64,000 bases of DNA. Origin: an uncultured bacterium. Lineage in GTDB: Bacteria; Cyanobacteriota; Vampirovibrionia; Gastranaerophilales; Gastranaerophilaceae. The first letter of the stretch is position 1. Every line of letters begins with the position of its first letter. Position numbers and translations under genes: made by a program. Shown in pieces: positions 31,616-60,928 of the stretch. Below the pieces are notes generated by a model. The model was given only the letters and a program-made list of their open reading frames with translations, did no database searches and was not told where the DNA came from. The stretch spans positions 588 through 64,587 of the forward strand of contig CAISJE010000076.1 in assembly GCA_903885635.1 (NCBI GenBank), in the 5' to 3' direction.

Positions 31616-32530
31616 TTGGTTGTAGAAGTAGAAGTAATAAAGCAAAATAATTCACATTCAAAAAACAGAGAATATACTGCCTCTGTTACAGATGAACCTG
31701 TATGTATTTTTGATAAAAATACTCCTCCAAAATACGCAGAAACCGATAACTCTTTGTTTTCTGTTGTTAAAGCAATTCCGACATTTAGAAGAATATATTC
31801 CGCTCCTGATGAAGTAGAAAAGGGCAATATTACTACTGCAGCAGGAATGGCAAGTTTAGCACTTATTAATGTTCCAGAAGATTTTAGAGATATGAAAAAT
31901 GCATATAGCCAACTTAAATCAGCAATTAAGGGGGAGAAATACGAATATAAATATGATTATACGAAATATCAACATCCGTTTTCATTTGTAAGAGGCACTT
32001 TATTAAATGATGTCGCAGATTCAAATAAAGCAAAGCATAAAGAATTAGCAAAGAAAATATTAAAAGGGGATGTAACATTAGCTAAAACTAGACTTGGAAA
32101 AAAGGTATTTAAAATTTTAGGTGTGGAATGTGTTGATAAGATTGAAACAAAAGTTCATGACTTTGGCTCTACAGAAGCTGCACCAAAATTTGTTAAAGCG
32201 AATGTTTATGAAGGTTCAAGTTTTGGCAAATTAACTGCTCATTCTTTTGAAAGAACTACCAAATATGGTGTTTTGGCAATGGCACTGTTGGAATTACCCA
32301 AAATAGTTAAAGCGTTTAATAATGGCGATAATGTTGAAGAAAAAATTAAAAATGGTAGCAAACAAATTTTGAAATCAGGAATAAATGTTGCAGCTATTAC
32401 CGCAGGTATAGGTTACGCAGGTGCAATTGGAGCTCAAAAGCTTGGGCCTGTTGGCTCATTAGTTGGAATGGGGGCAGGAGCAATAATAGGTGGCTATGGC
32501 TCTAAGAAACTTCAAGAACTTGTTGCTTAA
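31616..32530 (+). CDS. hypothetical protein with a C-terminal glycine-zipper membrane segment
   Basis: TTG start with no early ATG. C-terminal AAITAGIGYAGAIGAQKLGPVGSLVGMGAGAIIGGYG. Confidence 0.45.
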   Translation: MVVEVEVIKQNNSHSKNREYTASVTDEPVCIFDKNTPPKYAETDNSLFSVVKAIPTFRRIYSAPDEVEKGNITTAAGMASLALINVPEDFRDMKNAYSQLKSAIKGEKYEYKYDYTKYQHPFSFVRGTLLNDVADSNKAKHKELAKKILKGDVTLAKTRLGKKVFKILGVECVDKIETKVHDFGSTEAAPKFVKANVYEGSSFGKLTAHSFERTTKYGVLAMALLELPKIVKAFNNGDNVEEKIKNGSKQILKSGINVAAITAGIGYAGAIGAQKLGPVGSLVGMGAGAIIGGYGSKKLQELVA

Positions 32531-32817
32531 CTTATTTTTTTATCACCTTTTGATGCAAAAAAAATTTTTACCCACTGAATGTCAATGTCAAAACTATTTT
32601 GAAATTTAGGGAAATAGTGTTTTTTTGCAGCTTCTAAAGTATCAACGGCATCTTGTTGGGAGATTCCTGAAAAGATTACGCTATCTGTAAGATCTCTCGC
32701 ACAATCAATATCGCCTTTAAGTTTATTTAACCATTGAGTATTGACCCCACAAAATGCAGGATTTTGGAATTTAGTATTTGTTTGATTTGCATTATTTGTA
32801 TTAAAATTTATTAACAT
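32527..32817 (-). CDS. hypothetical small protein with a weak version of the shared N-terminal leader
   Basis: Product starts MLINFNTNNANQTNTKFQNPAFCGVN... Confidence 0.45.
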   Translation of the reverse strand: MLINFNTNNANQTNTKFQNPAFCGVNTQWLNKLKGDIDCARDLTDSVIFSGISQQDAVDTLEAAKKHYFPKFQNSFDIDIQWVKIFFASKGDKKIS

Positions 32818-32909
32818 ATTATATTTTTACCTTATTCACTTTTACAATTATATTAAATCAATCAAGGAAAATAATTGCTACAAATGTTATAAAAATTTAC
32901 ATATATTGT

Positions 32910-33590
32910 TTATAATCCAAAATTCATTCCCGATAAATGCTCGAGATATTGGATATCTATTTTTTCAGGAACAATGTCAATATTTCGAGCAAGATAAGCA
33001 ACATTGTGTATTTGCTTCCCTTCTTTCCAAAGAATAATTTTGTAATAATAATCAGGAATTTCAACTTTATTGCCAATATAATTTTTCTGATTTTGAATTA
33101 CTCCTGTTATAACTGTTATCCCATTATGAATAGTAGCTGAATTTCGTTCTATTTCTTCAATTTTTTTCCACTCAGCTTCATTTAATTTTTTATTTTGAGG
33201 TGCTGCATTTGCAAAAGAAAAAGTTAAATATTTTTTTGCTTGACAAGAATTAAAGTTTGCAGCCGGAGCCAAATGCCCTCTATCATAACCTGAATTTGTA
33301 TAATCCTTGGTTGTGGCATAATTTGATCCGCATACTCTTTGAATATCAGATGGAACCCTAGAGGGCCATTTTGTTGCTCGTACAGCATTTCCTATAAAAT
33401 CACTAGGAAATAAATTATAAAAAACATAATATGGTGTTTTCTTTTCACAATTCAAAACGCTTGTATATGCCTGATTAGAAACAGAGTTATTTATATAAGG
33501 CTGTTTCCAATCACTTAAGCCTATTGGCTGTGAAAAGACTGGTAAACACAAATTTAAAATAGATAAAAATAATAACAGTAATTTTTTCAT
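32910..33590 (-). CDS. secreted non-specific DNA/RNA endonuclease (beta-beta-alpha-Me, NucA/EndoG family)
   Basis: Signal peptide MKKLLLLFLSILNLCLPVFSQ. Active-site block YDRGHLAPAANF (DRGH motif). Confidence 0.8.
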   Translation of the reverse strand: MKKLLLLFLSILNLCLPVFSQPIGLSDWKQPYINNSVSNQAYTSVLNCEKKTPYYVFYNLFPSDFIGNAVRATKWPSRVPSDIQRVCGSNYATTKDYTNSGYDRGHLAPAANFNSCQAKKYLTFSFANAAPQNKKLNEAEWKKIEEIERNSATIHNGITVITGVIQNQKNYIGNKVEIPDYYYKIILWKEGKQIHNVAYLARNIDIVPEKIDIQYLEHLSGMNFGL

Positions 33591-33834
33591 ATAAACTTTT
33601 CTTAATGGTTAATATTCTCTATTTTACATTCATTTTTAATTATATATATTATCCAGAAGACTTAAAATTAGTTTTTTATAAGTTCTTAAATATGTTCAGT
33701 GATATTTAAAATAATCGCTCTTGCTTGATTTTCTAATATATTTGGGAATATTATTATTTTGGCAATTCTTCTATATCCTTCATATCCTTTTGTAAAGATT
33801 GAAATATACCAATTCTCATCTTGTTTGTTCTCTC

Positions 33835-34035
33835 TTATATATATCTTGCTTTAATAGTGACTCCATCTTTACTTGGTATAACTATTATTCCATCTCTTTC
33901 TAGTTCTTCAATTACTGCAAATAATGCTCCATGTAGTTTTTCTTCTTTCGTAGCGATTGTAAGTTCTCCTCCAGCACTACAGAACATATGCCACATGATA
34001 AGATTCTTGGTTGATTGTACCTGTTCTTCTTCCAT
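33835..34035 (-). CDS. hypothetical small protein
   Basis: 66 aa from ATG 34035 after AGAAGG. Confidence 0.35.
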   Translation of the reverse strand: MEEEQVQSTKNLIMWHMFCSAGGELTIATKEEKLHGALFAVIEELERDGIIVIPSKDGVTIKARYI

Positions 34036-34321
34036 ATATGCCTTCTTTCTATTTAACAGCATTCATTATACAAAATATATACCACTATACATTACTAAAT
34101 TATCAAATAATGGTGCTTAGTTTTGTTTATACCCATTGGTAATTATCTGATAATGCTTACTAATACGGCAATATAGATAATATTTTCATCTTAACAAAAA
34201 TTATTATTGTAACTGTATTTCAGTACTATGTGACAAATATATGGTACTGTTTTTTGTTGTTTATTATATTTACGTTACCTATTAGCATGAGAAAAGTAAC
34301 ATTTTTCGCTAAGGGGGTATA

Positions 34322-34651
34322 ATGAATAAAAAGGATATTGGGAATAAAATAAAAGAGTTTCGCAACATAAAAGGTATGACACAAGCAGAATTAGCGGAAT
34401 CCGTAAATATGCATGAAAAACAAATTTCAAGAATTGAAACAGGTGTACATTTCCCTACATTTGATAATTTTGTAAAAATTTTAGAATGTCTTGATGTTGA
34501 ATTAAAAGATTTTGACATTAAGCCCAAAGTTAAAAAAAATAACCTCAAAAGCAAAGTGCAAAAAATAATTAATCATGCTACTGATAAAGAATTAAAGTAT
34601 TATGTTTCTGTTTTAGAATCATTGCAAAAGTGTTTTAAAACTACAAAATAA
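34322..34651 (+). CDS. XRE-family HTH regulator
   Basis: IGNKIKEFRNIKGMTQAELAESVNMHEKQISRIETG. RBS AAGGGGG. Confidence 0.75.
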   Translation: MNKKDIGNKIKEFRNIKGMTQAELAESVNMHEKQISRIETGVHFPTFDNFVKILECLDVELKDFDIKPKVKKNNLKSKVQKIINHATDKELKYYVSVLESLQKCFKTTK

Positions 34652-34774
34652 AATGAAAATCTTTTATGTCAGTATTTTTACATACTTAAAAAAATCTTAA
34701 TGATAAGGAGTTAAGCAATATTTATAGAAGTTCTATAGAAATCAATTAAATAAGGATTTATCTCCCATAAAATA

Positions 34775-35809
34775 TTAATCCAAATTAATTTTAATTGGAA
34801 AACGTTGATCTGCCTTTATTTCAGGTGCTAAATCACTAGTGTTTTTTATATTAATAATAATTGTACACTTATATTTCTCGGCACAAGAAGAAAGAAATGC
34901 TTTTAATTTTGAAATAATCTTTTCATTTTTTTGAGAATTTTGAGTATATTTATCAAAATTTTCAATATATATAAGCGTTCTTTTATCACTTTGTTGAGCA
35001 ACTTTGGCTTGTTCAATAAGAGTTTTTAATGCATTTTCTTCTGTCAATTTCTCAAAGTCAATTTTCTTAAGCTCACAACCAGCTTTTTTAGCTGTCCATT
35101 CAATTAATTCATCGCTAATCTTTTTATCTAATCCAGAAATCATAATCCCGTTGGGGAATGCACCAGTATTTACATTTTTTCCTGTTTTTTCAAGTTGAGC
35201 TTTTTTTATAAATTCTGGTTGTAAGATTTCAGTATACAAGCTTAATTTTTGATCCTGAATTAACTCTTTATCTAGCCCTAAATCTTTTTCTTCTATTTCA
35301 ATTTTATTTTTTTCTAGTTCAAGGTTATTTCTTTTTTTCTTTATTTGTTCTAATTTAATATTTTTTTCTAATTCGGCTTGTTCTTGTTTTAATCTTCGCT
35401 CTTCTCTTTTTTGATACGCTAATTCATCTTTGATTTTCTGTTCTCTTCTAGCTCTTTTTGCAATTTCTTCTTTCATTTCCTTAATTTTAGCCGAAACAGA
35501 ACGAACTTTAGCTTCTACTTCTCTTATATTTGTATCACTTCTGAAAATATTATTCTGGACCCAGCCACGTTCACTCCAAATATCATCTTTAAGCATACTG
35601 CTGAAATTGTCTACATATAAATATTTTTTTGCATAATGTTCGATAGAATGCCAATCAGCTTTGAAGCTAACCTCTTTTTTTGTAATAACAGAAGATGAAA
35701 ATTTATCAGGGATTTGATTGCAATTATTGAAGCCAATATTGCTGTTTTTATTGGTATATGGAGAATATGTATTGTCTGTTTTAGTTTGTTTTATACTATG
35801 TACCTGCAT
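34775..35809 (-). CDS. leader-bearing coiled-coil protein with a degenerate (Walker-less) AAA+-like C-terminal domain
   Basis: Leader MQVHSIKQ...VSFKADW. The C-terminus aligns with the AAA+ gene at 36802-38193, but PNGIMISGLDKKIS replaces PNGILFYGPQSTGKT and IYIENFD replaces ILLDEFD. Confidence 0.6.
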   Translation of the reverse strand: MQVHSIKQTKTDNTYSPYTNKNSNIGFNNCNQIPDKFSSSVITKKEVSFKADWHSIEHYAKKYLYVDNFSSMLKDDIWSERGWVQNNIFRSDTNIREVEAKVRSVSAKIKEMKEEIAKRARREQKIKDELAYQKREERRLKQEQAELEKNIKLEQIKKKRNNLELEKNKIEIEEKDLGLDKELIQDQKLSLYTEILQPEFIKKAQLEKTGKNVNTGAFPNGIMISGLDKKISDELIEWTAKKAGCELKKIDFEKLTEENALKTLIEQAKVAQQSDKRTLIYIENFDKYTQNSQKNEKIISKLKAFLSSCAEKYKCTIIINIKNTSDLAPEIKADQRFPIKINLD

Positions 35810-35819
35810 TTTTACTCAC

Positions 35820-36725
35820 TTATTTTTGTTTGTTTTCCTGAGAAACTCTTAAAAGTTTTCGTCCAAGTGTAATCATACTCTCAATACCATTTTCTTTAGG
35901 TTTTTCTAATAATGATTTAAACTCATTATTGTTTTTAGCATTTAAATATTTTAACAGTTTAGGTATATCTGAATATTCAGACTCTGGTATTACTTTTTTT
36001 ATTAACTCAATATTATTTGCAATTAAAGGTATTCCCTCTGTTATTGCAAAATCTTTGTTTTCTAGTGTTATATAGTTTAAATATGGATTGAAATCTTCTA
36101 TTCCAATACCTAATTTTTCGCTATGGTTAATTAATTGGGGTAATGCTTCTTTTGCGATTTTTTTATCATTTGGATTTATTTTTTCAATAAAACCGTCAAG
36201 CCGTTTTTCTAAATCTTTTTTTGATTGTTCTGCTCCAGCCTGTTGTTCTTTGATTTGTTTTTCCAGTTCTGCTTTTTCTTTTTGTGCATTAATTAATTCT
36301 TCATTTTGTTTTGGTGCTGTTGACTTGACTGAAGGTTGAGAAGAGGGCGAAGATACTGCAGAATATTGACGTTTAGAACTTCCCTCAGAGGAGTTAATAT
36401 TTGACGACGTGCCTTTATTAGCTTTTTGAGCTCCTTCAGCAATATTTTCACCTGAATTTTTTAGTGGATTTTTTCCTTTTTTAAGATTTAATGCCAAAAT
36501 TATTCCACCAACAATAATAGCAATTCCCGCAATTATATAGGCTGTTATTTTATTTTTATCTTCTTTTTTATTAGGAGTTTCTTGAATTCCCGAAAAAGAA
36601 ATAGTATCTTGCTCAATAGAATTTTTACTAACTAAAAATTTACGTTGGTTAGTATTTTGTTGAACACTTTTATTATTTGTAGTTGAAATTTTATTATTTA
36701 AATAAATCACACTATTTCTCCACAT
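35820..36725 (-). CDS. leader-bearing single-pass membrane protein
   Basis: Leader ends in ISFSG (residues 43-47), followed by TM ITAYIIAGIAIIVGGIILAL and then an S/Q/K-rich linker. Confidence 0.55.
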   Translation of the reverse strand: MWRNSVIYLNNKISTTNNKSVQQNTNQRKFLVSKNSIEQDTISFSGIQETPNKKEDKNKITAYIIAGIAIIVGGIILALNLKKGKNPLKNSGENIAEGAQKANKGTSSNINSSEGSSKRQYSAVSSPSSQPSVKSTAPKQNEELINAQKEKAELEKQIKEQQAGAEQSKKDLEKRLDGFIEKINPNDKKIAKEALPQLINHSEKLGIGIEDFNPYLNYITLENKDFAITEGIPLIANNIELIKKVIPESEYSDIPKLLKYLNAKNNNEFKSLLEKPKENGIESMITLGRKLLRVSQENKQK

Positions 36726-36801
36726 CACTACTTATTTATAATAAAACATAAAATCGAATTTAATTGCTCAAATTACTCTTTCTTAATTAAGAAACATTAA
36801 C

Positions 36802-38193
36802 TTATATAGCTCTTTTTGTCATAGCCGCAATTTCTTTGGAGAATTTATCCATAGACTCAGGGATTATATCTGGACCTACTTCTCTTATAGCTTGAAGCAA
36901 ACCATTTTCTGTAACTTTTTGACTTGCTTTTTTAGTAATGGCGATATAATCTGAGACTATTGTTTTTATTCTGCCCACACTATATGCCTCATTTGTTTCT
37001 CTTGCTTTCATAACTTCATCAGCTAATTTAGAATGATCGATTACTTGTTCGGTATCACCCTTCAAATAAAATTTAAATACTTCTGCAGCATTTTCTTTTT
37101 CAGGTGGTCCTAAAAATACTTTTACTGGCATACGTTGATCTGCTAAAAGTTCTGAACTAAGTTTTAATGGATGATTTGTAGTCATAAATACGGTACATTT
37201 ATATTCATCAGAACATTTTTGTAAAAAGTTTTTCAATTTTGCAATTTTTGTATCTTCCAAAACTTTACCTAGATCTTTTTCATTTGAACTAGCAATAGAA
37301 TCAAATTCATCTAGAAGAATTATTGTTCGTTTTTTAGCTTTTCCACTATCTTCATAATCTTTTTTTGATTGTTTTGCAGCTTTCAATAAATCATTTATTA
37401 TATCATCGTCTGATTGCATCATGTCTATTTCAACATAATTACAACCATTTTTTCCTTCAGGACCAGTCATTGCAGCTTGATTAGCAAATTCTCTTGCAAA
37501 AAGAGTTTTTCCCGTGCTTTGTGGTCCATAAAATAGTATTCCGTTTGGCATTTTAACTTCAACGCCAGCTTTTTCTGCGGCTAATTTTCTTATAAAAGAT
37601 TCGTCAAGTTTTTCTTTAATAGGTTCGTTACCTGCTAATCTTCCCCAGCCTTTTTCTGCCTCTCTTTTTGTGGCATTTTCATAAATATTATTCATATCAC
37701 TAGCTTGTTTTGTTTTAGTATCATATTCTGCTTGTTTTTTGTTAAGCTTTTCTTCCATTTCTTTTACACGTTTTTCTAATTCAGCTTTTTCTGCTTGATC
37801 TTGTTGAGCATCTCTCATATCTTTTTGTAAGTTAGCTAACGTTAGTTTTATTTCGCCTAACTCGCTATTCTTGTCATTAAGCATTTTTTCCATAAGCCCC
37901 TGATTTACGTCTCTAAGGCTATCTGTTTCAGCTTGAGCTTCATAAAACCCTAAAGCTTGTGCGTCAGTTGCAGCCTTTGCATTTTTTGCCTTTTTTTTGT
38001 TTCTCCAACCATCTGCATGTTTAAGATTTTCTTGATAATGTGCTTGCCAGTCAAATTTTCTATCATTGTTTTCACCTTTGAAAGATACAGTATTTGCTTG
38101 AGCATTATTTGTTTTCATTTGACTTGAAGCATAATTTCTTTTTTTGAAATTATTTGTTTTTAAATAACAGTTTGGTTGAATAGTTAGTTGCAT
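36802..38193 (-). CDS. leader-bearing AAA+ ATPase with an N-terminal coiled coil
   Basis: Leader MQLTIQPN...VSFKG (36-40). Walker A GPQSTGKT, Walker B IILLDEFD, sensor-1-like MTTNHP. Confidence 0.8.
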   Translation of the reverse strand: MQLTIQPNCYLKTNNFKKRNYASSQMKTNNAQANTVSFKGENNDRKFDWQAHYQENLKHADGWRNKKKAKNAKAATDAQALGFYEAQAETDSLRDVNQGLMEKMLNDKNSELGEIKLTLANLQKDMRDAQQDQAEKAELEKRVKEMEEKLNKKQAEYDTKTKQASDMNNIYENATKREAEKGWGRLAGNEPIKEKLDESFIRKLAAEKAGVEVKMPNGILFYGPQSTGKTLFAREFANQAAMTGPEGKNGCNYVEIDMMQSDDDIINDLLKAAKQSKKDYEDSGKAKKRTIILLDEFDSIASSNEKDLGKVLEDTKIAKLKNFLQKCSDEYKCTVFMTTNHPLKLSSELLADQRMPVKVFLGPPEKENAAEVFKFYLKGDTEQVIDHSKLADEVMKARETNEAYSVGRIKTIVSDYIAITKKASQKVTENGLLQAIREVGPDIIPESMDKFSKEIAAMTKRAI

Positions 38194-38208
38194 ATTTAAC
38201 TCCTTTTA

Positions 38209-39348
38209 TTATATTTGTTTTGTTAATTCTAAAAACAATTTACCAAGTTCTTTAAAATTGCCCGAAGCAAATTCTGTGTATAATTTTTCTATTGTTTTTC
38301 TCAAATTAGTTTGTGCTTGTTTCCCCACTTTTTTGATTAATTCTTCTTCAATAAGTCTTAATTGCTCTAAAAATTCTCTTTGTCCGATGTTATTTAATTG
38401 TTCTTTAAGAGCTCTTAGTTGCTTTTCTAAGGCAGTTACCTCGCCTTGATATAATTTTTCAGATTCTTTTAATACTTTTATACTTTCTTTTTGAGATTTA
38501 TTTGAATCAAAAAAACCTAAAATTCGATCTTCATCAATACCCAATGATTCTTCTTTTATTCTAATAGCATCTTTTTTTAACTTTATTGCATTTTCTCGGA
38601 TGCTTATAGAATCTTCCTTCATTTGGATACCTTCATTCCGAATTCGTTTTGCTTCAGACTGTTTTCTTTTAACAGAAGTTTCTTTGCCAACAACCACCTC
38701 TTCTCTAGTTGTAAGTTCAATATTTTTTTTATCAATCCTTAATTCTTCAGATGATAATTCTACTTTTCTAGCTTGAATTCCGCCTTCATTTTTTACTATT
38801 TCAGACTCTCTTGCCTGTAGTGCATTATTTTTTCTTCTTTGTTCAGCATCTTGTAAATTTAGATTTTCTTCTTTTGTATTTAACCGAGAGCCTTTTTCCC
38901 TGAGTTCATTATCCTTCAAATTGAGCCGATTATCCTTATTGTTAAGTTCATTTTCTCTTGTGTCTAGTTGCCCTTCTTTTGTTTTAATTTTTTTGTCTCT
39001 AGAATTAAGTCCATTTTCTCTTTCATTAAGATTATGTTCTCTGCCATTTAATTTTTTGTCTCTTGTATCTTGATTAATATCTCTTTCGTCACACTTCTTA
39101 GTTCTGAAATCTATTGATTCGAGAGTTGTAGCTAATTTTGCTCTTTTTTTACCACCAAAAATCTTTATTATCCAATTCATTTTATCAAGCTTTTCATCTA
39201 AATGAGCCTGATAATCAAAAATATCATTATTACCCTTAAACGAAATGATATTTGTAGTTTTCATTATTGGGGCGTAATTCTTATAGCTATTATTATGCTT
39301 GTAAGAGGTTGTTTTTAAATAATAATTCGGCTGTGTTGTTAGTTGCAT
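38209..39348 (-). CDS. leader-bearing heptad-repeat protein
   Basis: Leader MQLTTQPN...ISFKG (35-39), followed by about 27 consecutive 7-aa repeats. Confidence 0.6.
   Translation of the reverse strand: MQLTTQPNYYLKTTSYKHNNSYKNYAPIMKTTNIISFKGNNDIFDYQAHLDEKLDKMNWIIKIFGGKKRAKLATTLESIDFRTKKCDERDINQDTRDKKLNGREHNLNERENGLNSRDKKIKTKEGQLDTRENELNNKDNRLNLKDNELREKGSRLNTKEENLNLQDAEQRRKNNALQARESEIVKNEGGIQARKVELSSEELRIDKKNIELTTREEVVVGKETSVKRKQSEAKRIRNEGIQMKEDSISIRENAIKLKKDAIRIKEESLGIDEDRILGFFDSNKSQKESIKVLKESEKLYQGEVTALEKQLRALKEQLNNIGQREFLEQLRLIEEELIKKVGKQAQTNLRKTIEKLYTEFASGNFKELGKLFLELTKQI
38521..39087 (-). repeat. about 27 tandem heptads ([RK]-[DE]-N-x-L-x-x type) in coding sequence
   Basis: Residues 88-276: ...RENGLNS RDKKIKT KEGQLDT RENELNN KDNRLNL KDNELRE KGSRLNT KEENLNL... 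Confidence 0.8.
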
Positions 39349-39525
39349 TTTATACTCCTGCTACCCACTTTGCTAGTTTTTATATAATTTAAAAACAGAC
39401 ATGAAAATTATTGTTAGTTTTAAACTTATTTTTTACATTGCTTAATATTTGTCCATTTTTTAGCAAAAAAAATATTTATGTGTTTTACACTAATAGAATA
39501 AAAAAATCGGAAAGTGTAAATAAAA

Positions 39526-41046
39526 ATGTTAGTAATCCCCATTAGCTACATAAATAATAAATGTAAAACAACTCAAAATCAACGCCAAAAGACTAAAGTT
39601 GGGTATGAGTATTCCCAAGATGTTTTCAATAAGCAACAAAATATAAGTTTTACAGGTATCCCTCAAATTACATTATTTGAAGATATAGTAAAAATTATTG
39701 TAAAAGGGGACTTAGGACAAATAGATAATTTAATAGATCCTTTTGTAATAAATGCGAACCTAAAGTCATTGTTACATGTTTCCGCAGAACATAAACAATT
39801 GAAAATATCAAAAAAATTACTAGATAAAGGTTTAAGCTTGAATCATAGAGACCGATTGGGTAAAACACCTTTTTCTATAGCCTGTTCTGTACAAGATGAA
39901 GAAAGCGTTAATTTATTTTTAAATTATAAACCTAATATAAATTCTCAAGATGAAATAGGTAATACTCCATTGCATGAAGCAATATCTAGCCCTAAAATTT
40001 TGGGTAGCTTATTAGATAAGGGAGCGAATCCATATGCGAAAAATTCATTTGGATTGCCTGTTTTACATGAAGCTTCTGACAACCCAGCTTCGTTTGAATA
40101 TTTATTAAAAAAGGGAGTAAATCCTGATTCAATTAATGATGAAGAGCAAACTCTTTTACATACAGCATCTATTGATGGAAATCAAAAACTTAGTGATTTA
40201 TTACTTCAATATAAAGCTGAGAAAAATTTTAGAGATAAAAATGGAAGGTCTCCTATTTTTTATTCAAAAGATAGTGAAACTGTAAAATATTGGATTAAAA
40301 ATGGAGTGGACGTCAATTTACAGGATAAAGACGGTAAAACAGCATTATTTGATTTTGTTTCAAAAAATGACATAAAAAGTGTTATTGAACTTTTAACAAA
40401 TGGAGCAAGAACAGATATTGCGGACAAAGATGGTAAAACAATACTTTTGTATGCAAATAATAATATTTTTAGAAAATTATTATTACAATTTGGTGCAGAT
40501 CCTAATGTTGTAACCAGTAATGGCAGTACTTTATTGCATACTGCTGTACAAAAAAATAATGAAGAAGTTGTAAAAACATTACTCGATTACAGCGCAAATG
40601 CAAAAGCCATAGATAAAAACGAAAAATCACCTTTATATTTTGCTAAGAGTAATGGGATCAGAAGTTTATTATTAGAGAATGGTGCAAATCCTAATGATGA
40701 ACTCTACTTGCATTTTGCATTGAAAACAGATAATGAAGAATTTTTCAATACTTTATTACGAATGGATAATATTGATGTAAATATTGAAGACTTGCATAGT
40801 AAAACACCTATTTTTTATTGTAAAAAAGAACAAGATGCAATAAAATTGGCAAATAAAAAAGCATATATAAATTATCAGGATGATAATGGAAATACACCGT
40901 TGCACCACTTTTATGCAACAGGGAATATGAAAATGGTAGAAACTTTTAAAAAGCTAGGAGCCGATGAAACAATAAAAAATAATAATGGAGAAATTCCACA
41001 AGAATTATTTAAAAAATATGAAAAATATTCCGCTTGGATTAAATAA
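39526..41046 (+). CDS. leader-bearing ankyrin-repeat protein
   Basis: Leader ends in ISFTG (40-44). Many ANK units (GNTPLHEA, QTLLHTA, GSTLLHTAVQKNNEEVVKTLL, GNTPLHH). Confidence 0.85.
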   Translation: MLVIPISYINNKCKTTQNQRQKTKVGYEYSQDVFNKQQNISFTGIPQITLFEDIVKIIVKGDLGQIDNLIDPFVINANLKSLLHVSAEHKQLKISKKLLDKGLSLNHRDRLGKTPFSIACSVQDEESVNLFLNYKPNINSQDEIGNTPLHEAISSPKILGSLLDKGANPYAKNSFGLPVLHEASDNPASFEYLLKKGVNPDSINDEEQTLLHTASIDGNQKLSDLLLQYKAEKNFRDKNGRSPIFYSKDSETVKYWIKNGVDVNLQDKDGKTALFDFVSKNDIKSVIELLTNGARTDIADKDGKTILLYANNNIFRKLLLQFGADPNVVTSNGSTLLHTAVQKNNEEVVKTLLDYSANAKAIDKNEKSPLYFAKSNGIRSLLLENGANPNDELYLHFALKTDNEEFFNTLLRMDNIDVNIEDLHSKTPIFYCKKEQDAIKLANKKAYINYQDDNGNTPLHHFYATGNMKMVETFKKLGADETIKNNNGEIPQELFKKYEKYSAWIK

Positions 41047-41085
41047 AAATTATTATTTAGAAAAACTTTAAGGAGTTATTAAAAA

Positions 41086-41859
41086 GTGCTTGTTACCGCA
41101 ATTCAACGTCAAAAACCAAATAAAAATATGCCTGAAAAATCAAGCATATCATTTAAAAGTTATTTAGGTGCTGACCAATATGGTTCACCTAAATTAAGAG
41201 AATCTTTGACTTATAGAGTTCAATTAACACCTGAAAAAATTGATGCTATTATGAAAAATGCACAAACAACTGATGAAGGTCTTGTTACTGTTTATAAAGA
41301 ATTAGTTGGAGAATCTAAGCATGTAGATCAAGGATTTATGGCTTTTAATTTCATTAATAGGCAGTATATGACGGTTGCCAAAAGAAGAATTCAAGGTCTT
41401 GTTGATTCCTATATCAAGAAAGAAGACGGTAAACCTATAGGAAATACAAAACATTTAAGCTCTAGAGTTACGGGTGGAAAAGGAAAATTAGAAGACCATT
41501 TAAAAAATTTACTATCAGATTTTGATGATATTAATGAAAAATATGTAGAAAATGGCTTAAAACCCCTAATTATAGCTTATGCTAAAATTAGTCAATATTT
41601 TCAAGAGGGCATAGATTATGTTAATATGAGAAAAAGTTCTTCTCCATTGAGAGAAAAATTGCTTGATAATACTAAAAAAATGTTAGAAAAATATGAAAGT
41701 CCTTATGAAAAAATATTTACAAGATTAGATAAACAAGGTGATTCATTGGTTAATAACAGTAATACGGTTCTAGAAAGTTATTCAAAACTTACAGGACGTT
41801 CTGTTCAAAAAATAATTAAATGGGTTGGCAGAATCTCAAGAGTAGCCGGTGGCGGTTAA
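41086..41859 (+). CDS. leader-bearing hypothetical protein
   Basis: GTG start after AAGGAG. Product starts MLVTAIQRQKPNKNMPEKSSISFKS. Confidence 0.55.
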   Translation: MLVTAIQRQKPNKNMPEKSSISFKSYLGADQYGSPKLRESLTYRVQLTPEKIDAIMKNAQTTDEGLVTVYKELVGESKHVDQGFMAFNFINRQYMTVAKRRIQGLVDSYIKKEDGKPIGNTKHLSSRVTGGKGKLEDHLKNLLSDFDDINEKYVENGLKPLIIAYAKISQYFQEGIDYVNMRKSSSPLREKLLDNTKKMLEKYESPYEKIFTRLDKQGDSLVNNSNTVLESYSKLTGRSVQKIIKWVGRISRVAGGG

Positions 41860-41877
41860 TAATATAAGGAGTGAAAA

Positions 41878-42816
41878 ATGATTACAGCTGTATCAAATTT
41901 TAAACAAAATAGTTTGAATAAAAACAATTCAAATAATAATTTAGACAATTTGCGAAGAACAGGTTTTAATAAAAATAATTCTTCGCAGCAATCTGTTCAA
42001 ATTTCTTTTAAAGGACTTAACGGATCTAAAATAGGTAAAAATATTTTAGATGATATTGCTTCAAATATGGGTAAAAAAGTTACACGTTTTACTGAAGAAA
42101 TGGTTGAATCAACAAAAATACTTTTTAGGAAGTTAAAAGGACAGGAGGAGTTGCCATTTAGTGAAAAACCAATAATGGCTCCAATGCAAATTAAAAAAAC
42201 TCAATGGACAACTAATTCTGAACATTTATTAACGAATATGAAAAAGGCAGGGCTTGATCCAGGAACTCCAAATGCAGATACCGTAGGAGGACTTCCAGAG
42301 TATGAAAAAAGTAAATTAAGAGGAATTATTGCAGATGGAGTTAAGGATAAAACTATCACTCAAGACGAAGCTGATAAATTTAACAGCGAGCTTAAATTCT
42401 GTGGCAACCCCAATAAAATAGATTTGGACGGAGGTGATATTAGTGAGGTTAATAAATTTGATGATATTGATAATTTAAGCAAAGCTGATTTGAACCTTAA
42501 TGATGGAGTTAATGATTTAACCTTTACACATGCAAATGATTTAGATGTTGATGGACATAATTTAAACTTGGATAATGCAGGGGATTTAAATAAATTGAGT
42601 TTAGAAGAGTTCAATGTCTCTAAGTTAGATGCTGATATAGATAGTCATACACTAGATATGGACTTTCATAACCTAGATTTGGATATTGACAATTTAAACT
42701 TGGCACATACAGATGATTTGGGCATAGATACTCATAAATTAGATATTGATAACTTCGGTCTTGATGTTAATCCAGATATCGATTTACCAGATATTGATCC
42801 ATCTAGTCTAGTCTAG
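41878..42816 (+). CDS. leader-bearing hypothetical protein with an acidic D/N/L-repeat C-terminus
   Basis: MITAVSNFKQ...QISFKG (42-46). C-terminus contains repeated LDxDxHxLD-like units. Confidence 0.55.
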   Translation: MITAVSNFKQNSLNKNNSNNNLDNLRRTGFNKNNSSQQSVQISFKGLNGSKIGKNILDDIASNMGKKVTRFTEEMVESTKILFRKLKGQEELPFSEKPIMAPMQIKKTQWTTNSEHLLTNMKKAGLDPGTPNADTVGGLPEYEKSKLRGIIADGVKDKTITQDEADKFNSELKFCGNPNKIDLDGGDISEVNKFDDIDNLSKADLNLNDGVNDLTFTHANDLDVDGHNLNLDNAGDLNKLSLEEFNVSKLDADIDSHTLDMDFHNLDLDIDNLNLAHTDDLGIDTHKLDIDNFGLDVNPDIDLPDIDPSSLV

Positions 42817-42826
42817 TTTTCGATAA

Positions 42827-45622
42827 TTAGCAATTAATTATTTCACCCAAATTGGCAAAATAATCTTTGCTATTTTGTATGACTTCTCTATTTCCAACTA
42901 TGGACAATAAAGATGGCTGAGTTAGATAATGTTGTGCTAATTTTTGAATATATTCCGATGTCATATTATCAATTGCATCAAATAAAGCCTGTTGATAATT
43001 TGTACCATAAAAAGAATTGTACCCCTCTACTATTGTCTCATTTTTGTCTATGGATGATTCAGTCTTAGATAATATTTTATTTTTCAGGCTTGTTTTTTTT
43101 GATTCTAATTTTTCTAAAGTTATTGGCTTATTAACCAATTCATTTATACTTTCGTTGTATTTATCAATTACCTTATGCAAATTTTTTGTACTCGCAGTAA
43201 CATTAGTTGATAAAGTTAATCTTGCTACTTTACCTGTTTCATTGTTAACATCAAATCTTGAATTGGCAAAATATGCGATTTTATTTTCATTTCTCAATTT
43301 TTCAAATAATTTAGATTTTTCATTACCTCCAAGAATATGATTCAATAATAGTAACCCAGCTCTATCTTTAATATTACCACTTTCAATTATTTTGAAATAT
43401 TTTTCAATTTCAATTTGATCATTATCATTTTCTGTTTTAATAAATATTTTTGTTTTAGTTAAAGGAATAGCTTTAAATTTATTAAAAATTGCAGAATAAT
43501 TATTTTTTTGCAAAGGAGATATTTTTAGCAGTGTCTGAAATATTTCATTTTGAGTATCATTTAGAATTTCTTTAGGAATAGTTATAAAAATAGTACCTTG
43601 AGCATTTTCTAAAATTTGTTCATGAAGTTTATTTACATCATCTATAGTTAAATCTTTAACACTTCCTTCCATATAATGATATGGACTTTCTTTAAGAATC
43701 TCATCGCTGATTTGCTTATATATACTAGAATATTTAGAATTATTTTTTTCACTTTCTAAAATTTTATTTTTTTGTTCATTGAATTTTTCAATAGATATAC
43801 TTGGATGTAAAAGAATTCCCATAGCATAATTCAACATTTCTAACGTTTTATCTGGTGTCCCACTTAATGTTGTATATATTTCTTGAGAATTTCCATCAAA
43901 AGCTAAATGAATATTTTCTTTTGATAATCTTTCTATAGTTTCATCAGAAGCTAAAAAGCTTGCCAATGCAGCTCCTGCTTCAGGATTACTATATAATCTT
44001 TTTTGGGAATGTAAATCAAAGTGTATCGTACTTCTTGTAATATCAGCTCTTGAATCAATTACTACTCTAAGATTATTTGGTAAAAGATATTCATGGATAT
44101 CTTTAGTATTGAGTTGGTCAATGTTGCCTTTAAAAGATACTGGAGTTGATTTTCCCGATTTTTCTTGCGGATGAACTACAACAATAGAAACTTTATTTAA
44201 ATCTAAATATTTTTTTGCAGTGTTCTGTAAATCGTAAGGAGTTATTGAGTTTAAAATATTTAATAATTCTGTTTCTTTTTTTACATTATTTGATAAAGCT
44301 AAAGAAGTTGAATATTTTTCTGAAATATTAAAGGCATATTGACTTTCAAGTGATTCTTTATTTTTAACTCTATTTTTTATTTCATTTAATTTTTCATTTG
44401 GAATGGGACTTTGAGTTAAATAATAAATTTTAGAATAAAGATTTTTTAAACAATTTTCAATTTCTTTTTCAGAAGATGTGCCAGTAACATTTATAGAACA
44501 TGGAAAATCTTTTTGGGGTTCTAAAGAATTAATATTGCATGTAATATTAAAACTATTATCTATTCCTGCACTTTTAAAAATATCATCCTCTGTTAATATT
44601 TTAGAAATACAATACATCAAAATAGTATCTTTATAATTATTTGTTTCCGGTCCAATGAATGACAAATAAGCTTTAGCCCTATTTGATGAAGAATTATTAC
44701 CTATTGTGTCTACTCTTTTTGCGTTTTGAATTAAATTGTCTTTTGAAAAAGTTGTATTACTTAATTTAAGAGATTGTTCTGAAATATTTTGGGATTTTCC
44801 TAAATGTTTTGCAATTGTTTTTATAGTATTATCCTCAACAGCCCCAACTACTGTAGTGACCATATTGTTTGGACTATAAAAGTTGTCATAATAATTTAGT
44901 AAATCTTGTTTTTTAATGTTTTTAATAGTTAATAAGCTTCTATTTGCAAGAATATCGCTTGATGAATCTAAGTTAAATAAATTTTTAATACCAAGCTTAT
45001 TTGCAAAAATGTCATCTGAATTAAATTTTCCATCTTCTGTTAATTCTTGAATTATTATATCCTTCTCGTTGTCAATTTGTTCCTCGGTAAAATTTGTATG
45101 AGTTAATACAGCTGACTGAGCCTTAACTAAATCCTCAAAATTTTCGGTTTTGGTTAGATTAGCTTTAATATAATAATTTGTAAGAAAGTTTGTAGTTGTG
45201 GCATTAGACACCGCTCCTATTTTTAATAGGATAGTTTTAATATCTTGGTCATCTGGTTTAAAACAAGCATTTGCAAGTAAATGTTCTAACAAATGACTAA
45301 TTTCTTTTAAATTTGCATTTTCATCAAAATGTCCCACTTTAACATAAGTGTTTATAACAGTAGGACCAGATTTTGCAATTATGGCAATTTTATGCCCATT
45401 AGAAAGCTCATATAATTTACCCTGACCGATATATGGAACATCAAAAGTTTCAAGCTCTCTATATCCCTCAGTAATTTGAGGTGAAGCATACGCCTTGGAA
45501 GCTTCTAATGGGATTGGTTGATAATTTGGCAGACTTGAAAGCGAATTGAACTCCGCAGAATTTCCTTTGAAATTCTGCTGTTTTTGAACAAATTGGGCAT
45601 TGACTACACTACAAATATTCAT
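42827..45622 (-). CDS. leader-bearing M16 (pitrilysin/insulinase) family zinc peptidase, tandem-domain
   Basis: Inverted zinc motif HLLEH in EISHLLEHLLANA. About 930 aa, consistent with a double M16 unit. N-terminal ...QKQQNFKG. Confidence 0.8.
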   Translation of the reverse strand: MNICSVVNAQFVQKQQNFKGNSAEFNSLSSLPNYQPIPLEASKAYASPQITEGYRELETFDVPYIGQGKLYELSNGHKIAIIAKSGPTVINTYVKVGHFDENANLKEISHLLEHLLANACFKPDDQDIKTILLKIGAVSNATTTNFLTNYYIKANLTKTENFEDLVKAQSAVLTHTNFTEEQIDNEKDIIIQELTEDGKFNSDDIFANKLGIKNLFNLDSSSDILANRSLLTIKNIKKQDLLNYYDNFYSPNNMVTTVVGAVEDNTIKTIAKHLGKSQNISEQSLKLSNTTFSKDNLIQNAKRVDTIGNNSSSNRAKAYLSFIGPETNNYKDTILMYCISKILTEDDIFKSAGIDNSFNITCNINSLEPQKDFPCSINVTGTSSEKEIENCLKNLYSKIYYLTQSPIPNEKLNEIKNRVKNKESLESQYAFNISEKYSTSLALSNNVKKETELLNILNSITPYDLQNTAKKYLDLNKVSIVVVHPQEKSGKSTPVSFKGNIDQLNTKDIHEYLLPNNLRVVIDSRADITRSTIHFDLHSQKRLYSNPEAGAALASFLASDETIERLSKENIHLAFDGNSQEIYTTLSGTPDKTLEMLNYAMGILLHPSISIEKFNEQKNKILESEKNNSKYSSIYKQISDEILKESPYHYMEGSVKDLTIDDVNKLHEQILENAQGTIFITIPKEILNDTQNEIFQTLLKISPLQKNNYSAIFNKFKAIPLTKTKIFIKTENDNDQIEIEKYFKIIESGNIKDRAGLLLLNHILGGNEKSKLFEKLRNENKIAYFANSRFDVNNETGKVARLTLSTNVTASTKNLHKVIDKYNESINELVNKPITLEKLESKKTSLKNKILSKTESSIDKNETIVEGYNSFYGTNYQQALFDAIDNMTSEYIQKLAQHYLTQPSLLSIVGNREVIQNSKDYFANLGEIINC

Positions 45623-45772
45623 GCACACACCTTATTTCTTACTCCAATAAAAACACGTGAAGATAATTAATGAACAATTTTTATGTCAATTGTTAAAAAA
45701 GATTTACAATATCAGGATTATTAGCAACATATCCTATCAGGGGTTTTGTATATATTAAAAAGAGGTTTTCAA

Positions 45773-46624
45773 TTGAAAATATTATTTGCATGTCAAAATA
45801 ATAACTCAAATCAACCCCCCAAAATTGTCTTTGGGGCAGGTTTGACATCTAAAATGATGCAAGAAATACAACAGGCAGATGTTGTTGAAATATCAAAAAA
45901 GCTTGCACAAAAAGGAATTCCAACTGATTTTAAAGATAATAAAGTTATTGCTTGGTGCTGTGACAAAACAGTGGGGATATTAGAAGAGCTAAATAATAGA
46001 TTTGGGCAAAAATTGGCTTTACCAAGTGCAATTGAGGTGGAAAATTTTGAACGGTTAAATGTCGAAAATACGAATATTTTAAGTACTTGCAATATGTTAC
46101 CAACAAAATTGAGAAAAAATTCTGCCGAAAGAACGCCACCAAGAGGAATATTTTTTAATAGTTTATATAATTTTGAAAATATTGATAAAATAGCAGATGA
46201 TGATTATGTAATTGGACTTTCTAGTACTCCCCATTTTTTAAATTTTAGCTTACATGAAGTTATCCACAGTGCTCATGAATATAGATTGCTAGATAGACTA
46301 GGGGCTAAAACTTTAGCTAGAGAGCTTGATTTATATAAAAATCAAAAGCAGGTTACAGAATATCAACAAAAATATCGGGAGAAAGTTTTAAAAATTTGTG
46401 CCTATGCTGAAACTGACCCATTTGAGGCAATAGCCTGTGATATGTCAAGAGTTATTGCTGATTCTCTTGATAAAAAAACTTTATTGCCGACAAGAAACCC
46501 TTTTATCGGAACACCTTATGAAAAATTATCATTTTGGCAAAGAGTAAATATACCAAATTGTTCTGATGACGAACGACCATTACAAGAAATCTTAAGGCGT
46601 TTTTGGAATGGAAAGTTTGACTAA
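45773..46624 (+). CDS. putative HExxH zinc metallopeptidase-like protein with a short leader-like N-terminus
   Basis: FSLHEVIHSAHEY (HExxH). TTG at 45773 after AGAGG. N-terminal KILFACQNNNSNQPPKIVFGAG. Confidence 0.5.
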   Translation: MKILFACQNNNSNQPPKIVFGAGLTSKMMQEIQQADVVEISKKLAQKGIPTDFKDNKVIAWCCDKTVGILEELNNRFGQKLALPSAIEVENFERLNVENTNILSTCNMLPTKLRKNSAERTPPRGIFFNSLYNFENIDKIADDDYVIGLSSTPHFLNFSLHEVIHSAHEYRLLDRLGAKTLARELDLYKNQKQVTEYQQKYREKVLKICAYAETDPFEAIACDMSRVIADSLDKKTLLPTRNPFIGTPYEKLSFWQRVNIPNCSDDERPLQEILRRFWNGKFD

Positions 46625-46834
46625 TTTAGAAATTATTACTTACGTAAAAATATGGACTGTTAATATTACTTAGTAGAGTTATAATTAAACTGTTAAGACA
46701 TTCTTGTGAGGCTCACGCCCATGATGGCAAAGTTATTTACAAGAAAAGCTGGAATAGCTATGCCTTATATTTATATCAATTAAAATGGTTTTAATAACCA
46801 TATTTTCTGCATGCATAATTTGAAAGGAGCCTAT

Positions 46835-48211: not shown

Positions 48212-48212
48212 C

Positions 48213-50846: not shown

Positions 50847-50873
50847 GGTGCAATTATAATAAAAACAAAAAAA

Positions 50874-51437: not shown

Positions 51438-51550
51438 TTAAATTATTCCTTGATTTTCTGTCAATAATATTAACAGAAAAATTGTTTTTTATAAACATTT
51501 ATTTTCACTAATAACAAGTATTTATTGTATAATTTATCATGAGGTAACTT

Positions 51551-51838: not shown

Positions 51839-52189
51839 CCTATAAAATGAGAAAAATGCAATTGATTTTGAGAATTTTTTTTCATAGGAATTTGAGAAAA
51901 AATTATACAAGTTTTTTGCATTTTGGCTCAAACTAAATGTTACATCGGCTCAAACCATGTGATAATTTACAGTAGCCGAAACTTTGACATAAAATGTTAC
52001 CCATTATGTCATAAAAAGTTGGAAGGGTTAAAACTGCTTATTGCCTATAATAGTTTCGATAAGAGCATGTAACTTTTAATGAAAATTATTTACAGATTCA
52101 ATAGAAATAGAATTTATTTTGTTGTAACATACACATTGGAGACATGTCATTGTTAAGCAATTATTAATAAGTAGCCCATGTAAGTTCTT

Positions 52190-60893: not shown

Positions 60894-60928
60894 CAATTAC
60901 AATATAAAAAATAAGAAAGGATATAAAA

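Follow-up and report, generated by a model that had tools for sequence, protein, structure and literature searches.

The DNA analyzed here, termed the window, is a stretch of 64,000 nucleotides from contig CAISJE010000076.1 (positions 588 to 64,587) of an uncultured bacterium of the family Gastranaerophilaceae. Between positions 31616 and 46624, the window carries a run of genes with low G+C content (GC; 27-30%) beside a region of higher GC (35-39%). These genes encode an AAA+ ATPase and two of its paralogues, a membrane anchor, an ankyrin-repeat protein, a four-domain M16 metallopeptidase, a protein with an HExxH motif and several further proteins (Table 1). Most of these proteins begin with a leader made of two parts. 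An N-terminal block (N-block) with the pattern M-bulky-[ILV]-[STN]-x-[ILV] is followed by the motif [ILVP]-[ST]-F-[KRT]-[GSA], and the two are joined by a basic linker of variable length (5 to about 35 residues) that is rich in N, Q, S, T and K and has almost no acidic residues. The leader is real, is selected as a peptide, is specific to one gene module and is disordered in AlphaFold2 (AF2) models of two proteins.

A preliminary description, made from the letters of the window, had proposed that neighbouring proteins share a leader ending in [IV]SF[KTS]G, and this proposal is confirmed. A six-frame scan of the window yields eight matches to this strict motif. Five are located at residues 34-42 of real, long open reading frames (ORFs) within the interval, one is internal to the M16 peptidase (residue ~495), and the remaining two fall in short junk ORFs. 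Amino acid composition predicts 0.09 strict matches across 69 ORFs, and 0.003 for the first 60 residues of the 12 cluster genes, where five are found (Poisson P of at least 5 = 3e-15). The concern that shuffled sequences would contain the motif just as often does not apply, because 2000 residue shuffles gave a mean of 0.09 and a maximum of 2 strict matches, compared with a real count of 6. Within the first 60 amino acids (aa), the strict motif is present in 5/12 cluster genes and 0/55 other ORFs (Fisher 8e-5), and a relaxed motif in 9/12 and 3/55, respectively (Fisher 1e-6). The weaker versions that had been listed are all there, namely VSFKA (pseudo-AAA protein), ISFKS (257-aa protein), QNFKG (M16 peptidase), IVFGAG (HExxH protein) and PAFCG (a 96-aa protein).

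True translation starts downstream of the motif, a possibility raised at the outset, are not indicated. Starts that include the leader are preceded by GGAG, AGGAG or GAGG boxes (for example, GTG 41086, GTG 36710 and TTG 45773), and an alternative ATG at 41128 of the 257-aa protein has no Shine-Dalgarno-type box upstream. The same genes are found on an independent contig from another sample, where the anchor is called as a 296-aa protein. Membership of the interval holds for most genes. The 304-aa ORF at its start lacks the leader, as do an endonuclease with a Sec signal and a helix-turn-helix (HTH) gene, and these two are non-members. The 96-aa ORF has a positive N-block score and the relaxed motif; no homologue of it was identified, and its membership is tentative.

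Table 1. Features of the window and of related loci. Positions refer to the window unless a locus is named; the strict and weaker motifs are given with the leader. PSSM, position-specific scoring matrix; wHTH, winged helix-turn-helix; TM, transmembrane.
Feature	Position	Strand	Leader and motif	Remarks
Pseudo-AAA paralogue, 344 aa	34775..35809	-	35657-35809; VSFKA 35657-35671	
Membrane anchor, 296 aa from GTG 36710	35820..36710	-	36588-36710; ISFSG 36588-36602	GGAG 8 nt before GTG
AAA+ ATPase, 463 aa	36802..38193	-	residues 1-40 (38074-38193); VSFKG 38074-38088	GGAG box before ATG
Coiled-coil ('heptad') protein, 379 aa	38209..39348	-	39232-39348; ISFKG 39232-39246	GGAG box
Ankyrin-repeat protein, 506 aa	39526..41046	+	39526-39657; ISFTG 39643-39657	Pfam Ank_2 3e-54
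257-aa protein	41086..41859	+	MLVTAIQ...SSISFKS 41086-41160	AGGAG box before GTG 41086
312-aa protein	41878..42816	+	41878-42015; ISFKG 42001-42015	acidic DxD-repeat tail
Four-domain M16 metallopeptidase, 931 aa	42827..45622	-	MNICSVV...QNFKG 45563-45622; internal VSFKG 44126-44140	HLLEH active site
HExxH protein, 283 aa from TTG 45773	45773..46624	+	weak, (L/M)KILFAC...IVFGAG 45773-45841	GAGG box
96-aa ORF	32527..32817	-	weak, MLINFNTN...NPAFCG (32746-32817)	positive N-block PSSM score, relaxed motif
304-aa ORF	31616..32530	+	none	no motif, negative N-block score, no family match
Sec-signal endonuclease	32910-33590		none	
HTH gene	34322-34651		none	
Mu-like transposable myophage	467-31485			also two DNA methylases
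MuA transposase	467-2425			Mu-like phage
MuB-like ATPase	2415-3293			Mu-like phage
Tail sheath	18994-20226			Mu-like phage
Terminase	25170-26540			Mu-like phage
Mu portal	26667-28112			Mu-like phage
Mu F	29288-30202			Mu-like phage
gpG-like	31015-31485			Mu-like phage
Defence-like island	46811-55957			
wHTH and PAPS-reductase-like	46811-49061			island
Secreted SNase+PLD nuclease	49062-50846			island
Restriction-methylase-specificity fusion, 1255 aa	52190-55957			island
Integrative element	59337-63261			DUF3987 protein, Toprim primase-like, tyrosine integrase
Aminotransferase-domain protein, 695 aa	L006 1884-3971; L007 1956-4040		MKIYALNPQLKL...IYFTG	class I/II
AAA+ homologue, 369 aa	L020 10001-11110		MHIQPISNNF...QINFTS	
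Three AAA-domain genes, 668, 506, 761 aa	L017 13826-19688		on 506- and 761-aa genes	
TM anchor	L014 11320-12708			C-terminal part weakly AAA-like
Acidic-tail leader carrier	L009 7074-7670			DxD/DxDxD repeats
DUF3987/Toprim pair	L002 16995-21384; L008 16234-18705			

The composition of the leader was assessed with 60 curated examples of 16-52 aa (mean 35). Acidic residues account for 1.4% of leader residues, compared with 13.5% in the protein bodies. K and R together make up 13%, and N, Q, S and T make up 40%, compared with 23% in the bodies; F, Y and P are enriched about 1.5-fold, and Cys is at 0.5%. Position 3 is I, L or V in 56/60 leaders but in only 36/142 flanking ORFs, and the first 12 residues lack D and E in 57/60 leaders but in only 50/142 flanking ORFs. 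A small residue at position 2 occurs in 1/60 leaders and 47/142 flanking ORFs; thus, by the methionine aminopeptidase rule, the initiator Met should stay. When PSSMs trained only on the leaders of AAA+ proteins are applied to other genes, 95 ORFs of module intervals score far higher than 142 flanking ones (Mann-Whitney: N-block 3e-15, motif 1e-14; orthologues in the samples inflate these p-values). None of the 142 flanking ORFs exceeds both thresholds (N-block > 3, motif > 7).

Codons of the motif turn over synonymously: Ser is encoded by both TCN and AGY, Arg by both AGR and CGN, and Gly by all of its codons. This variation indicates selection at the level of the peptide. Together with internal copies of the motif, described below, it rules out an RNA- or DNA-level element at the 5' ends of the genes. 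A structural strand of the downstream domains is likewise ruled out, because these domains are unrelated and the segment is disordered in AF2 models. In the AAA+ model the leader forms no sustained helix, and the motif is followed by coil and then by amphipathic helices. Residues after the motif Gly are polar or acidic (DDYFDYD, EECEE, INESMRR).

Relatives were sought in a scan of one genome per species with an eight-sequence alignment of the N-terminal region that is specific to the AAA+ family. The scan returned 11 loci, all from genomes labelled Gastranaerophilales, Vampirovibrio, Melainabacteria or 'Cyanobacteria bacterium UBA'. Metagenome contigs scanned with the same alignment, and genome contigs scanned with the M16 protein alone, gave no match. 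Neighbourhoods were read within 10 kb on either side of anchor genes. The AAA+ gene is part of a conserved unit of seven genes in the 11 loci and in three long metagenomic contigs. One strand of the unit encodes proteins of 205, ~313, ~200 and ~717 aa, the last with ankyrin repeats, and the diverging strand encodes the AAA+ ATPase, a ~473-aa protein with one TM helix and a ~398-aa pseudo-AAA protein. In the seven-gene cores of loci L002, L005-L011, L013, L018 and L019, each gene carries the leader except the 205-aa gene, whose family retains only the N-block. Examples from the core units are MKISFYTTPIVTFRG, MQISAIRPYN...VNFTGG, MIISSISS...VRFSG, MFISPI...VSFKG, MILPVSSS...VKFTNKN and MRISGIYNNY...PSFRG; the first of these is from the ~200-aa protein, in which the two blocks are only 5 residues apart. 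The unit is flanked by different housekeeping genes in each genome, with no prophage. The gene set is a conserved chromosomal module of Melainabacteria, neither an accessory island nor part of the Mu-like prophage that adjoins it in the window.

Orthologues were assigned by blastp and family profiles. The AAA+, anchor and pseudo-AAA genes of the window are core genes, and so is the HExxH gene, which belongs to the '313-aa' family by blastp to members of 305-321 aa at 10 loci. The 205-aa and ~200-aa families were not detected by profile in the window. No relatives in Pfam, NCBIfam or PDB were found for the anchor, the C-terminal domain (CTD) of the ankyrin protein, or the acidic-tail and 205-aa families.

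The four-domain M16 peptidase and variable enzymes often accompany the core genes, and each locus has 7-12 carriers of the leader. Beside the module in L006 and L007 is a 695-aa protein with a class I/II aminotransferase domain and a leader, an instance of a metabolic-type enzyme recruited to the leader set. Other carriers that vary between genomes include several proteins without a family match, and accessory proteins whose sequences we read as PHP-like and kinase-like.

The ATPase of the module is a classical-clade AAA+ protein. It matches Pfam AAA at 6e-18 and Cdc48/p97 sequences in PDB at 1e-19, and a Foldseek search with its AF2 model retrieves p97, Rpt and Msp1 at probability 1.0. By sequence and fold, its closest relatives are p97/Cdc48, proteasomal Rpt subunits, Msp1 and the Ycf2-FtsHi motor, all of which are polypeptide-threading machines. 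Its one AAA module comes after a predicted long coiled coil. Walker A is intact, and both GxxGxGKT and the LLD..D box are invariant. About 55 full-length homologues of 447-484 aa are available, down to 34% identity. Nearly all begin with M-x-[ILV]-x-[ILVP]-[QI]-[PS], followed by a variable N/Q-rich stretch, [IV][ST]F[KRTQSG][GSA] at residues ~27-40 and then (Y)FDYD. In an alignment of 47 full-length orthologues, F38 of the motif is one of 29 invariant columns. The AF2 model built with the family alignment has a predicted local distance difference test (pLDDT) score of 80, compared with ~30 for residues 1-40.

The preliminary description held that common descent does not explain the shared leader, on the grounds that the downstream folds are unrelated. 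This is correct for the ankyrin, AAA+, M16, HExxH and acidic-tail folds and, in relatives, for the aminotransferase. However, the homology of the AAA+, heptad and pseudo-AAA proteins extends past the leader, and these three are paralogues. The heptad protein corresponds to the N-terminal region of the AAA+ protein without the ATPase (41% identity over the first ~115 aa by blastp), and the pseudo-AAA protein has a weak Pfam AAA match and a family-profile E value of 6e-46. The 257-aa protein, counted there as an unrelated hypothetical, does have a full leader but is a fission product of the ankyrin gene. Thus, common descent accounts for part of the sharing of the leader. The anchor matches the profile of the TM-anchor family from 12 loci (E 3e-25), and in it the leader is followed by a single TM helix and a coiled-coil/helical domain.

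Variation in the ATPase group was also noted at single loci. In L014, the C-terminal part of the TM anchor is weakly AAA-like (blastp E 1.8e-10 to the AAA+ protein of the window); if this domain is cytoplasmic, the leader would be on the other side of the membrane. In L020, a 369-aa AAA+ homologue with a leader stands among housekeeping genes, and the nearest 10 kb hold no further gene of the module. In L017, three consecutive AAA-domain genes lie downstream of an M16/HExxH pair; leaders are recognised on the second and third, and none on the first, whose start is uncertain. This arrangement indicates that the number of ATPase paralogues varies between lineages.

The preliminary description treated the motif as part of an N-terminal leader, but it is not restricted to N-termini and also sits at internal domain junctions. 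The 506-aa ankyrin protein corresponds by blastp to the N-terminal ~485 aa of ankyrin proteins of 715-733 aa in nine other Melainabacteria, and the 257-aa protein corresponds to their last ~220 residues (residues ~490-710; E 1e-19 to 1e-24). In these nine fused orthologues and in L015, the linker between the ankyrin repeats and the CTD contains P[ST]F[TK]G or SFKG, for example in ...KYHGWIKSDKIKSTVPTFTGNMDYKIY.... The gene is split in the window and in L014, and the break lies directly upstream of the motif. The split-off ORF of the window starts with MLVTAIQRQKPNKNMPEKSSISFKS, a complete leader that includes an N-block and has its own AGGAG box. Overall, PSSM matches at internal positions number 9 in 31,918 for cluster proteins and 2 in 32,591 outside the cluster.

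A second junction is found in the M16 peptidase, whose internal VSFKG lies in the linker that joins the two halves of the protein. The peptidase matches Pfam M16 and M16_C and has the HxxEH sequence, distal Glu and clamshell of its class. About 110 fused homologues of ~920 aa keep both the N-terminal leader and the internal motif; the linker between the halves is variable, yet it holds [IVP]SF[KT]G in ~110 homologues down to 27% identity. Phe 497 is one of 14 invariant columns among 95 M16 sequences, together with catalytic H110, E113, H114 and E193. The AF2 model has a pLDDT of 87 overall and below 50 for residues 1-35 and 487-503, and its fold matches PqqL, FusC and IDE over about 950 columns. 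Two outgroup M16 proteins have neither the N-terminal leader nor the internal motif, and one of them has a classical signal peptide.

The M16 gene forms a divergent pair with the HExxH gene in the window, and this pair recurs in L016 and L017. Homologues of M16 and AAA+ lie on contigs of equal size (35,917, 12,487 and 14,048 nt), which suggests that these are the same contigs. The HExxH family conserves H-E-x-x-H-x-x-H and two Cys residues. Two putative metalloproteases are within the module set, one as a core protein (HExxH) and the other paired with it (M16).

The 312-aa protein has an orthologue that adjoins M16 in L017. By architecture, and with no sequence match, it resembles the ~200-aa acidic-tail core family. 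Two leader carriers, this protein and one from L009, end in long acidic DxD/DxDxD repeats such as DIDIDVDPDIEPDIDVD, for which cation binding and nucleic-acid mimicry are possibilities.

The preliminary description also noted the lack of Sec, Tat and lipobox features and saw a sorting, docking or processing signal of no described class. The first statement stands, and the second stands as a general reading. The longest hydrophobic run in the 60 leaders is 5 residues, too little for a Sec h-region, and a run of at least 8 within the first 45 aa is present in 0/60 leaders and 18/142 control ORFs; genuine Sec signal peptides exist in the same window, for example on the endonuclease. The Tat motif [ST]-R-R-x-F-L-K, sought as a regular expression, is present in 0/60 leaders, which also lack the h-region, and the lipobox L-[AS]-[GA]-C is likewise present in 0/60. 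No hydrophobic helix follows the motif Gly as it does in type IV prepilins, where a short basic leader ending in G precedes F/M-T-L-x-E and a helix of about 20 aa. Double-glycine leaders of the C39/ABC exporter type, which have a GG cleavage motif and an acidic/hydrophobic consensus, are not matched, as acidic residues are nearly absent and the neighbourhoods have neither a peptidase C39 nor an ABC transporter among their annotated genes. No curated family model (Pfam, NCBIfam, PADLOC, PHROGs) was found to match the leader, and no literature on the module or the motif was found. PADLOC gives no system-level match: its hits are generic, to AAA (IetA/TRIP13, no more than 35 bits) and ankyrin models, and PHROGs gives only generic AAA and Ank matches. 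A word-indexed search with a profile of the leader alone (~36 positions) produced 35 candidates, none of which passed, with a profile too short for power. An exhaustive search of 1.84 billion representatives with the leader profile, likewise of low power, found only two AAA+ orthologues (E ~4e-4).

Three further candidates were rejected. A cargo or capsid-targeting signal of the adjacent Mu-like prophage is ruled out because at least 12 other loci have no prophage and because GC differs; in agreement, the module has no phage genes in L002, L005-L013, L018 and L019. A cargo signal of the extracellular contractile injection system (eCIS/PVC) type is ruled out because tail genes are missing from the other loci and because, in the window, the contractile-tail genes are part of a complete Mu-like phage that also has head genes. 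The SHP-box (FxGxG) of p97 cofactors is ruled out because the second Gly is absent and the ATPase lacks a p97-type N domain, with only helices before the AAA module in the AF2 model.

These observations indicate that the leader is probably a functional signal that is recognised in trans by the module. Our favoured explanation, held tentatively and with less than even confidence, is that the leader is a lineage-specific disordered presequence whose motif is recognised, and most likely cleaved, by a component of the module. Cleavage at the F-x-G motif, taken as a claim of its own, is possible rather than probable. In this view, F-x-G would be what the enzyme recognises and most likely where it cuts, and the HExxH and/or M16 metalloproteases encoded by the module would be the prime candidates for that enzyme. 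Leaders would come off, and a fused protein, once cut, would yield the same mature pieces as those that split genes encode. Until then, the disordered leader could offer the AAA+ ATPase or a membrane-anchored scaffold a handle on each subunit. AAA+ threading motors start on disordered tails. The M16 clamshell is predicted from its model to enclose a chamber, and the chambers of solved M16 clamshells accept peptides of roughly the size of the leader. By analogy, the M16 chamber may cut or clear the released leaders.

Part of the argument for this explanation comes from the junctions. Fused proteins that already carry an N-terminal tag would hardly need an equally conserved internal motif, unless every boundary has to be recognised. 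Cutting at the motif would give equal pieces from fused and split genes, which would explain why fission is tolerated and why it is located exactly there. The internal motifs suggest a site of recognition or cleavage more than an export signal confined to the N-terminus. The presence of two putative metalloproteases in the set, and an M16 chamber that by analogy would suit the leader in size, also favour processing. An extra role before removal, perhaps engagement by the AAA+ protein or recruitment to the anchor, is suggested by the N-block and by the basic linker with its near lack of acidic residues.

Several observations weigh against a cleaved presequence. A cleavage site would not by itself account for the conserved N-block. 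About 30 further disordered residues follow the N-terminal motif of M16, so motif and fold are not always contiguous. The HExxH family has no relative of known activity in Pfam, NCBIfam or PDB, and its presumed protease function is assumed from the motif. Finally, machine-like parts such as the AAA+ protein and the anchor are tagged in the same way as enzyme-like parts, a pattern equally consistent with a common docking or assembly tag and with a propeptide.

Such a tag would not be cleaved. It would bind each subunit, and each domain of a fused protein, to a common scaffold, such as the ankyrin groove, a ring of AAA+ and pseudo-AAA proteins or the anchor, and thereby build a membrane-associated multi-enzyme complex. 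We consider this unlikely, although all module parts are tagged, including the ATPase and the anchor, and the combination of disorder with an invariant Phe and a near-invariant Gly is as expected for binding motifs. The core includes an ankyrin protein, and repeats of this kind are known to bind peptides in extended form; moreover, the tagged accessory enzymes vary between genomes, as does the aminotransferase of L006 and L007. However, fused proteins that are already tagged would need no second motif, yet the copies between ankyrin repeats and CTD and between the M16 halves are invariant. A docking tag also leaves the ten-fold depletion of acidic residues unexplained and provides no reason for two metalloproteases in the set. 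An export or translocation presequence would suit the composition best; it would direct its carriers, unfolded, to a flagellar or type III secretion system (T3SS)-type apparatus or to a new translocon of AAA+ and membrane proteins and later be cut by HExxH or M16. Composition resembles that of organellar presequences and T3SS signals, including the aliphatic position 3 (56/60), the acid-free first 12 residues (57/60) and the disorder; the AAA+ protein is of the threading type, the ankyrin proteins and enzymes of the set look like effectors, and M16 enzymes process and clear organelle targeting peptides (PMC9291397). We nevertheless regard export as quite unlikely. Among the carriers are a pseudo-AAA protein, a TM-anchored protein and an AAA+ protein whose Walker A is intact and which needs ATP, the secreted proteins of the genome use ordinary Sec signal peptides, and motifs at internal junctions make no sense for an N-terminal signal. 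Across ~20 loci, the annotation within 10 kb on either side lists no secretion gene, whether T3SS, flagellar or other. The resemblance to T3SS and flagellar signals seen in the preliminary description therefore extends to composition (an aliphatic residue or Pro at position 3/4 in 59/60 leaders and 70/142 controls; no acidic residue in the first 12 in 57/60 and 50/142) but not to an apparatus annotated in these loci or to carriers such as an active ATPase and a membrane-anchored protein.

Two other explanations are far less probable. A homotypic beta-strand or amyloid-like motif that drives co-assembly through cross-beta templating between carriers, much as amyloid signalling motifs do for adjacent NLR and effector genes of bacteria and fungi, would account for a short terminal motif common to neighbouring unrelated proteins, for the N/Q-rich linkers and for disorder of the monomer in AF2 models, and the closely spaced blocks of the ~200-aa core protein (MKISFYTTPIVTFRG) are compatible with a hairpin. 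It is very improbable, given that there is no NLR/STAND or Bell-type partner, that 7-12 carriers per locus do not make a sensor-effector pair, that linker length ranges from 5 to ~35 residues and that internal sites hold only one of the two blocks. It is hardly credible that the leader has no signal function and is a remnant of 5'-end duplication or recombination, or of codon bias in AT-rich DNA. Paralogy of the AAA+, heptad and pseudo-AAA genes and a GC of 27-30%, which favours codons for N, K and I, would fit such an origin. However, Phe is invariant over 47 AAA+ and 95 M16 homologues inside variable disordered segments, synonymous codons vary, unrelated folds carry the leader, and flanking ORFs of the same genomes and outgroup M16 proteins lack it.

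In its chemistry and its enzyme partners, the leader most resembles organellar presequences and transit peptides with their M16 peptidases. Like the substrates of MPP, SPP and PreP, it is N-terminal, disordered in models, basic, rich in hydroxylated residues, poor in acidic residues and attached to unrelated proteins, and here, too, an M16 peptidase and a threading-type AAA+ motor are at hand. PreP shares the closed four-domain clamshell architecture, whereas the best solved matches of the M16 protein of the window are PqqL, FusC and IDE. Transit peptides of glaucophytes and red algae depend on Phe, and the leader likewise has an invariant Phe. However, the module resides in a bacterium without a known internal import target, and no translocon homologue (TOC/TIC or TOM/TIM) was seen in the loci examined. 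Organellar presequences have no sharp consensus and are found on hundreds of proteins, whereas the leader has [ST]-F-[KRT]-G, a conserved N-block and internal copies and is confined to one module in the available loci.

The logic of the gene cluster most resembles that of prohead-protease propeptides or of adaptor elements in conflict systems, although the leader is a member of none of these classes. At the sites of T4 gp21 and phiKZ gp175, unrelated proteins encoded together share an N-terminal propeptide with a protease consensus, which serves in targeting and is then removed; cuts are made at internal sites as well. The likeness lies in unrelated co-encoded proteins with a shared leader that ends in a short consensus. 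In contrast to the setting of phage propeptides, the module is chromosomal, with a prophage as neighbour in this window alone; it encodes neither capsid proteins nor a prohead protease, and its consensus is another. In conflict systems with effector-associated, Death-like or BASS adaptors, neighbouring unrelated catalytic proteins share a short element that couples them to an NTPase core. These adaptors are folded helical domains of ~80-100 aa or paired N-terminal/C-terminal amyloid motifs of NLR-effector pairs, whereas the leader is a disordered segment of 16-52 aa, N-terminal or in a linker, on 7-12 proteins; likewise, the conflict-system NTPase is of the STAND/NLR type, whereas the module has a classical AAA+ protein.

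By the rules for effectors of Pseudomonas syringae, position 3 or 4 is aliphatic or Pro, acidic residues are absent from the first 12 positions, and the N-terminus is polar, rich in Ser and disordered. The leader follows these loose rules but differs from T3SS and flagellar signals in its motif, its internal copies, its ATPase and TM carriers and the lack of an annotated apparatus in the loci examined; a conserved motif is, to our knowledge, not a feature of T3SS signals described so far. Encapsulation peptides of bacterial microcompartments and dockerins of cellulosomes are also short terminal tags with a poorly conserved linker, and they recruit unrelated enzymes of one locus to a shared assembly. 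However, encapsulation peptides are amphipathic helices that depend on shell proteins, whereas dockerins are folded modules that bind Ca and sit on secreted proteins, and no shell or cohesin genes are annotated near the module in the loci examined.

Several mobile or defence-related elements surround the module in the window. A complete Mu-like transposable myophage (GC 35-39%, compared with 27-30% for the module) lies directly beside it. That the two adjoin is incidental, since the module occurs without a phage in other genomes. A defence-like island lies beyond the other end of the module, and an integrative element with a DUF3987 protein is found a few kb away. Similar DUF3987/Toprim pairs are located near the module in L002 and L008, and insertion may recur at the flank of the module.

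Melainabacteria, including Gastranaerophilales, are the closest relatives of cyanobacteria, a non-photosynthetic sister class that is common in human and animal guts and hardly cultivated. It is a long shot that they may have a dedicated presequence-based pathway for protein targeting and maturation, in which a transit-peptide-like leader is combined with an AAA+ threading motor and with removal by HExxH and M16 proteins. In such a pathway, the AAA+ motor may engage the leader at a membrane-anchored complex, and enzymes, ankyrin proteins and proteases may be delivered to an unseen compartment, an envelope structure or a target cell. If true, this would be a counterpart, in a free-living bacterium, of the logic of organelle import. 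If the leader is what the data suggest, it would define a new class of bacterial protein signal with cognate machinery. The N-block and [ST]-F-[KRT]-G provide a simple sequence rule for listing clients, and the cases of gene fission and fusion let one follow, as in a natural experiment, how a split gene acquires a signal. Five to seven core families without annotated function are now linked by gene order and a shared tag. The co-occurrence of presequence-like chemistry with an M16 peptidase and an AAA+ motor bears on the origin of targeting-peptide systems in bacteria.

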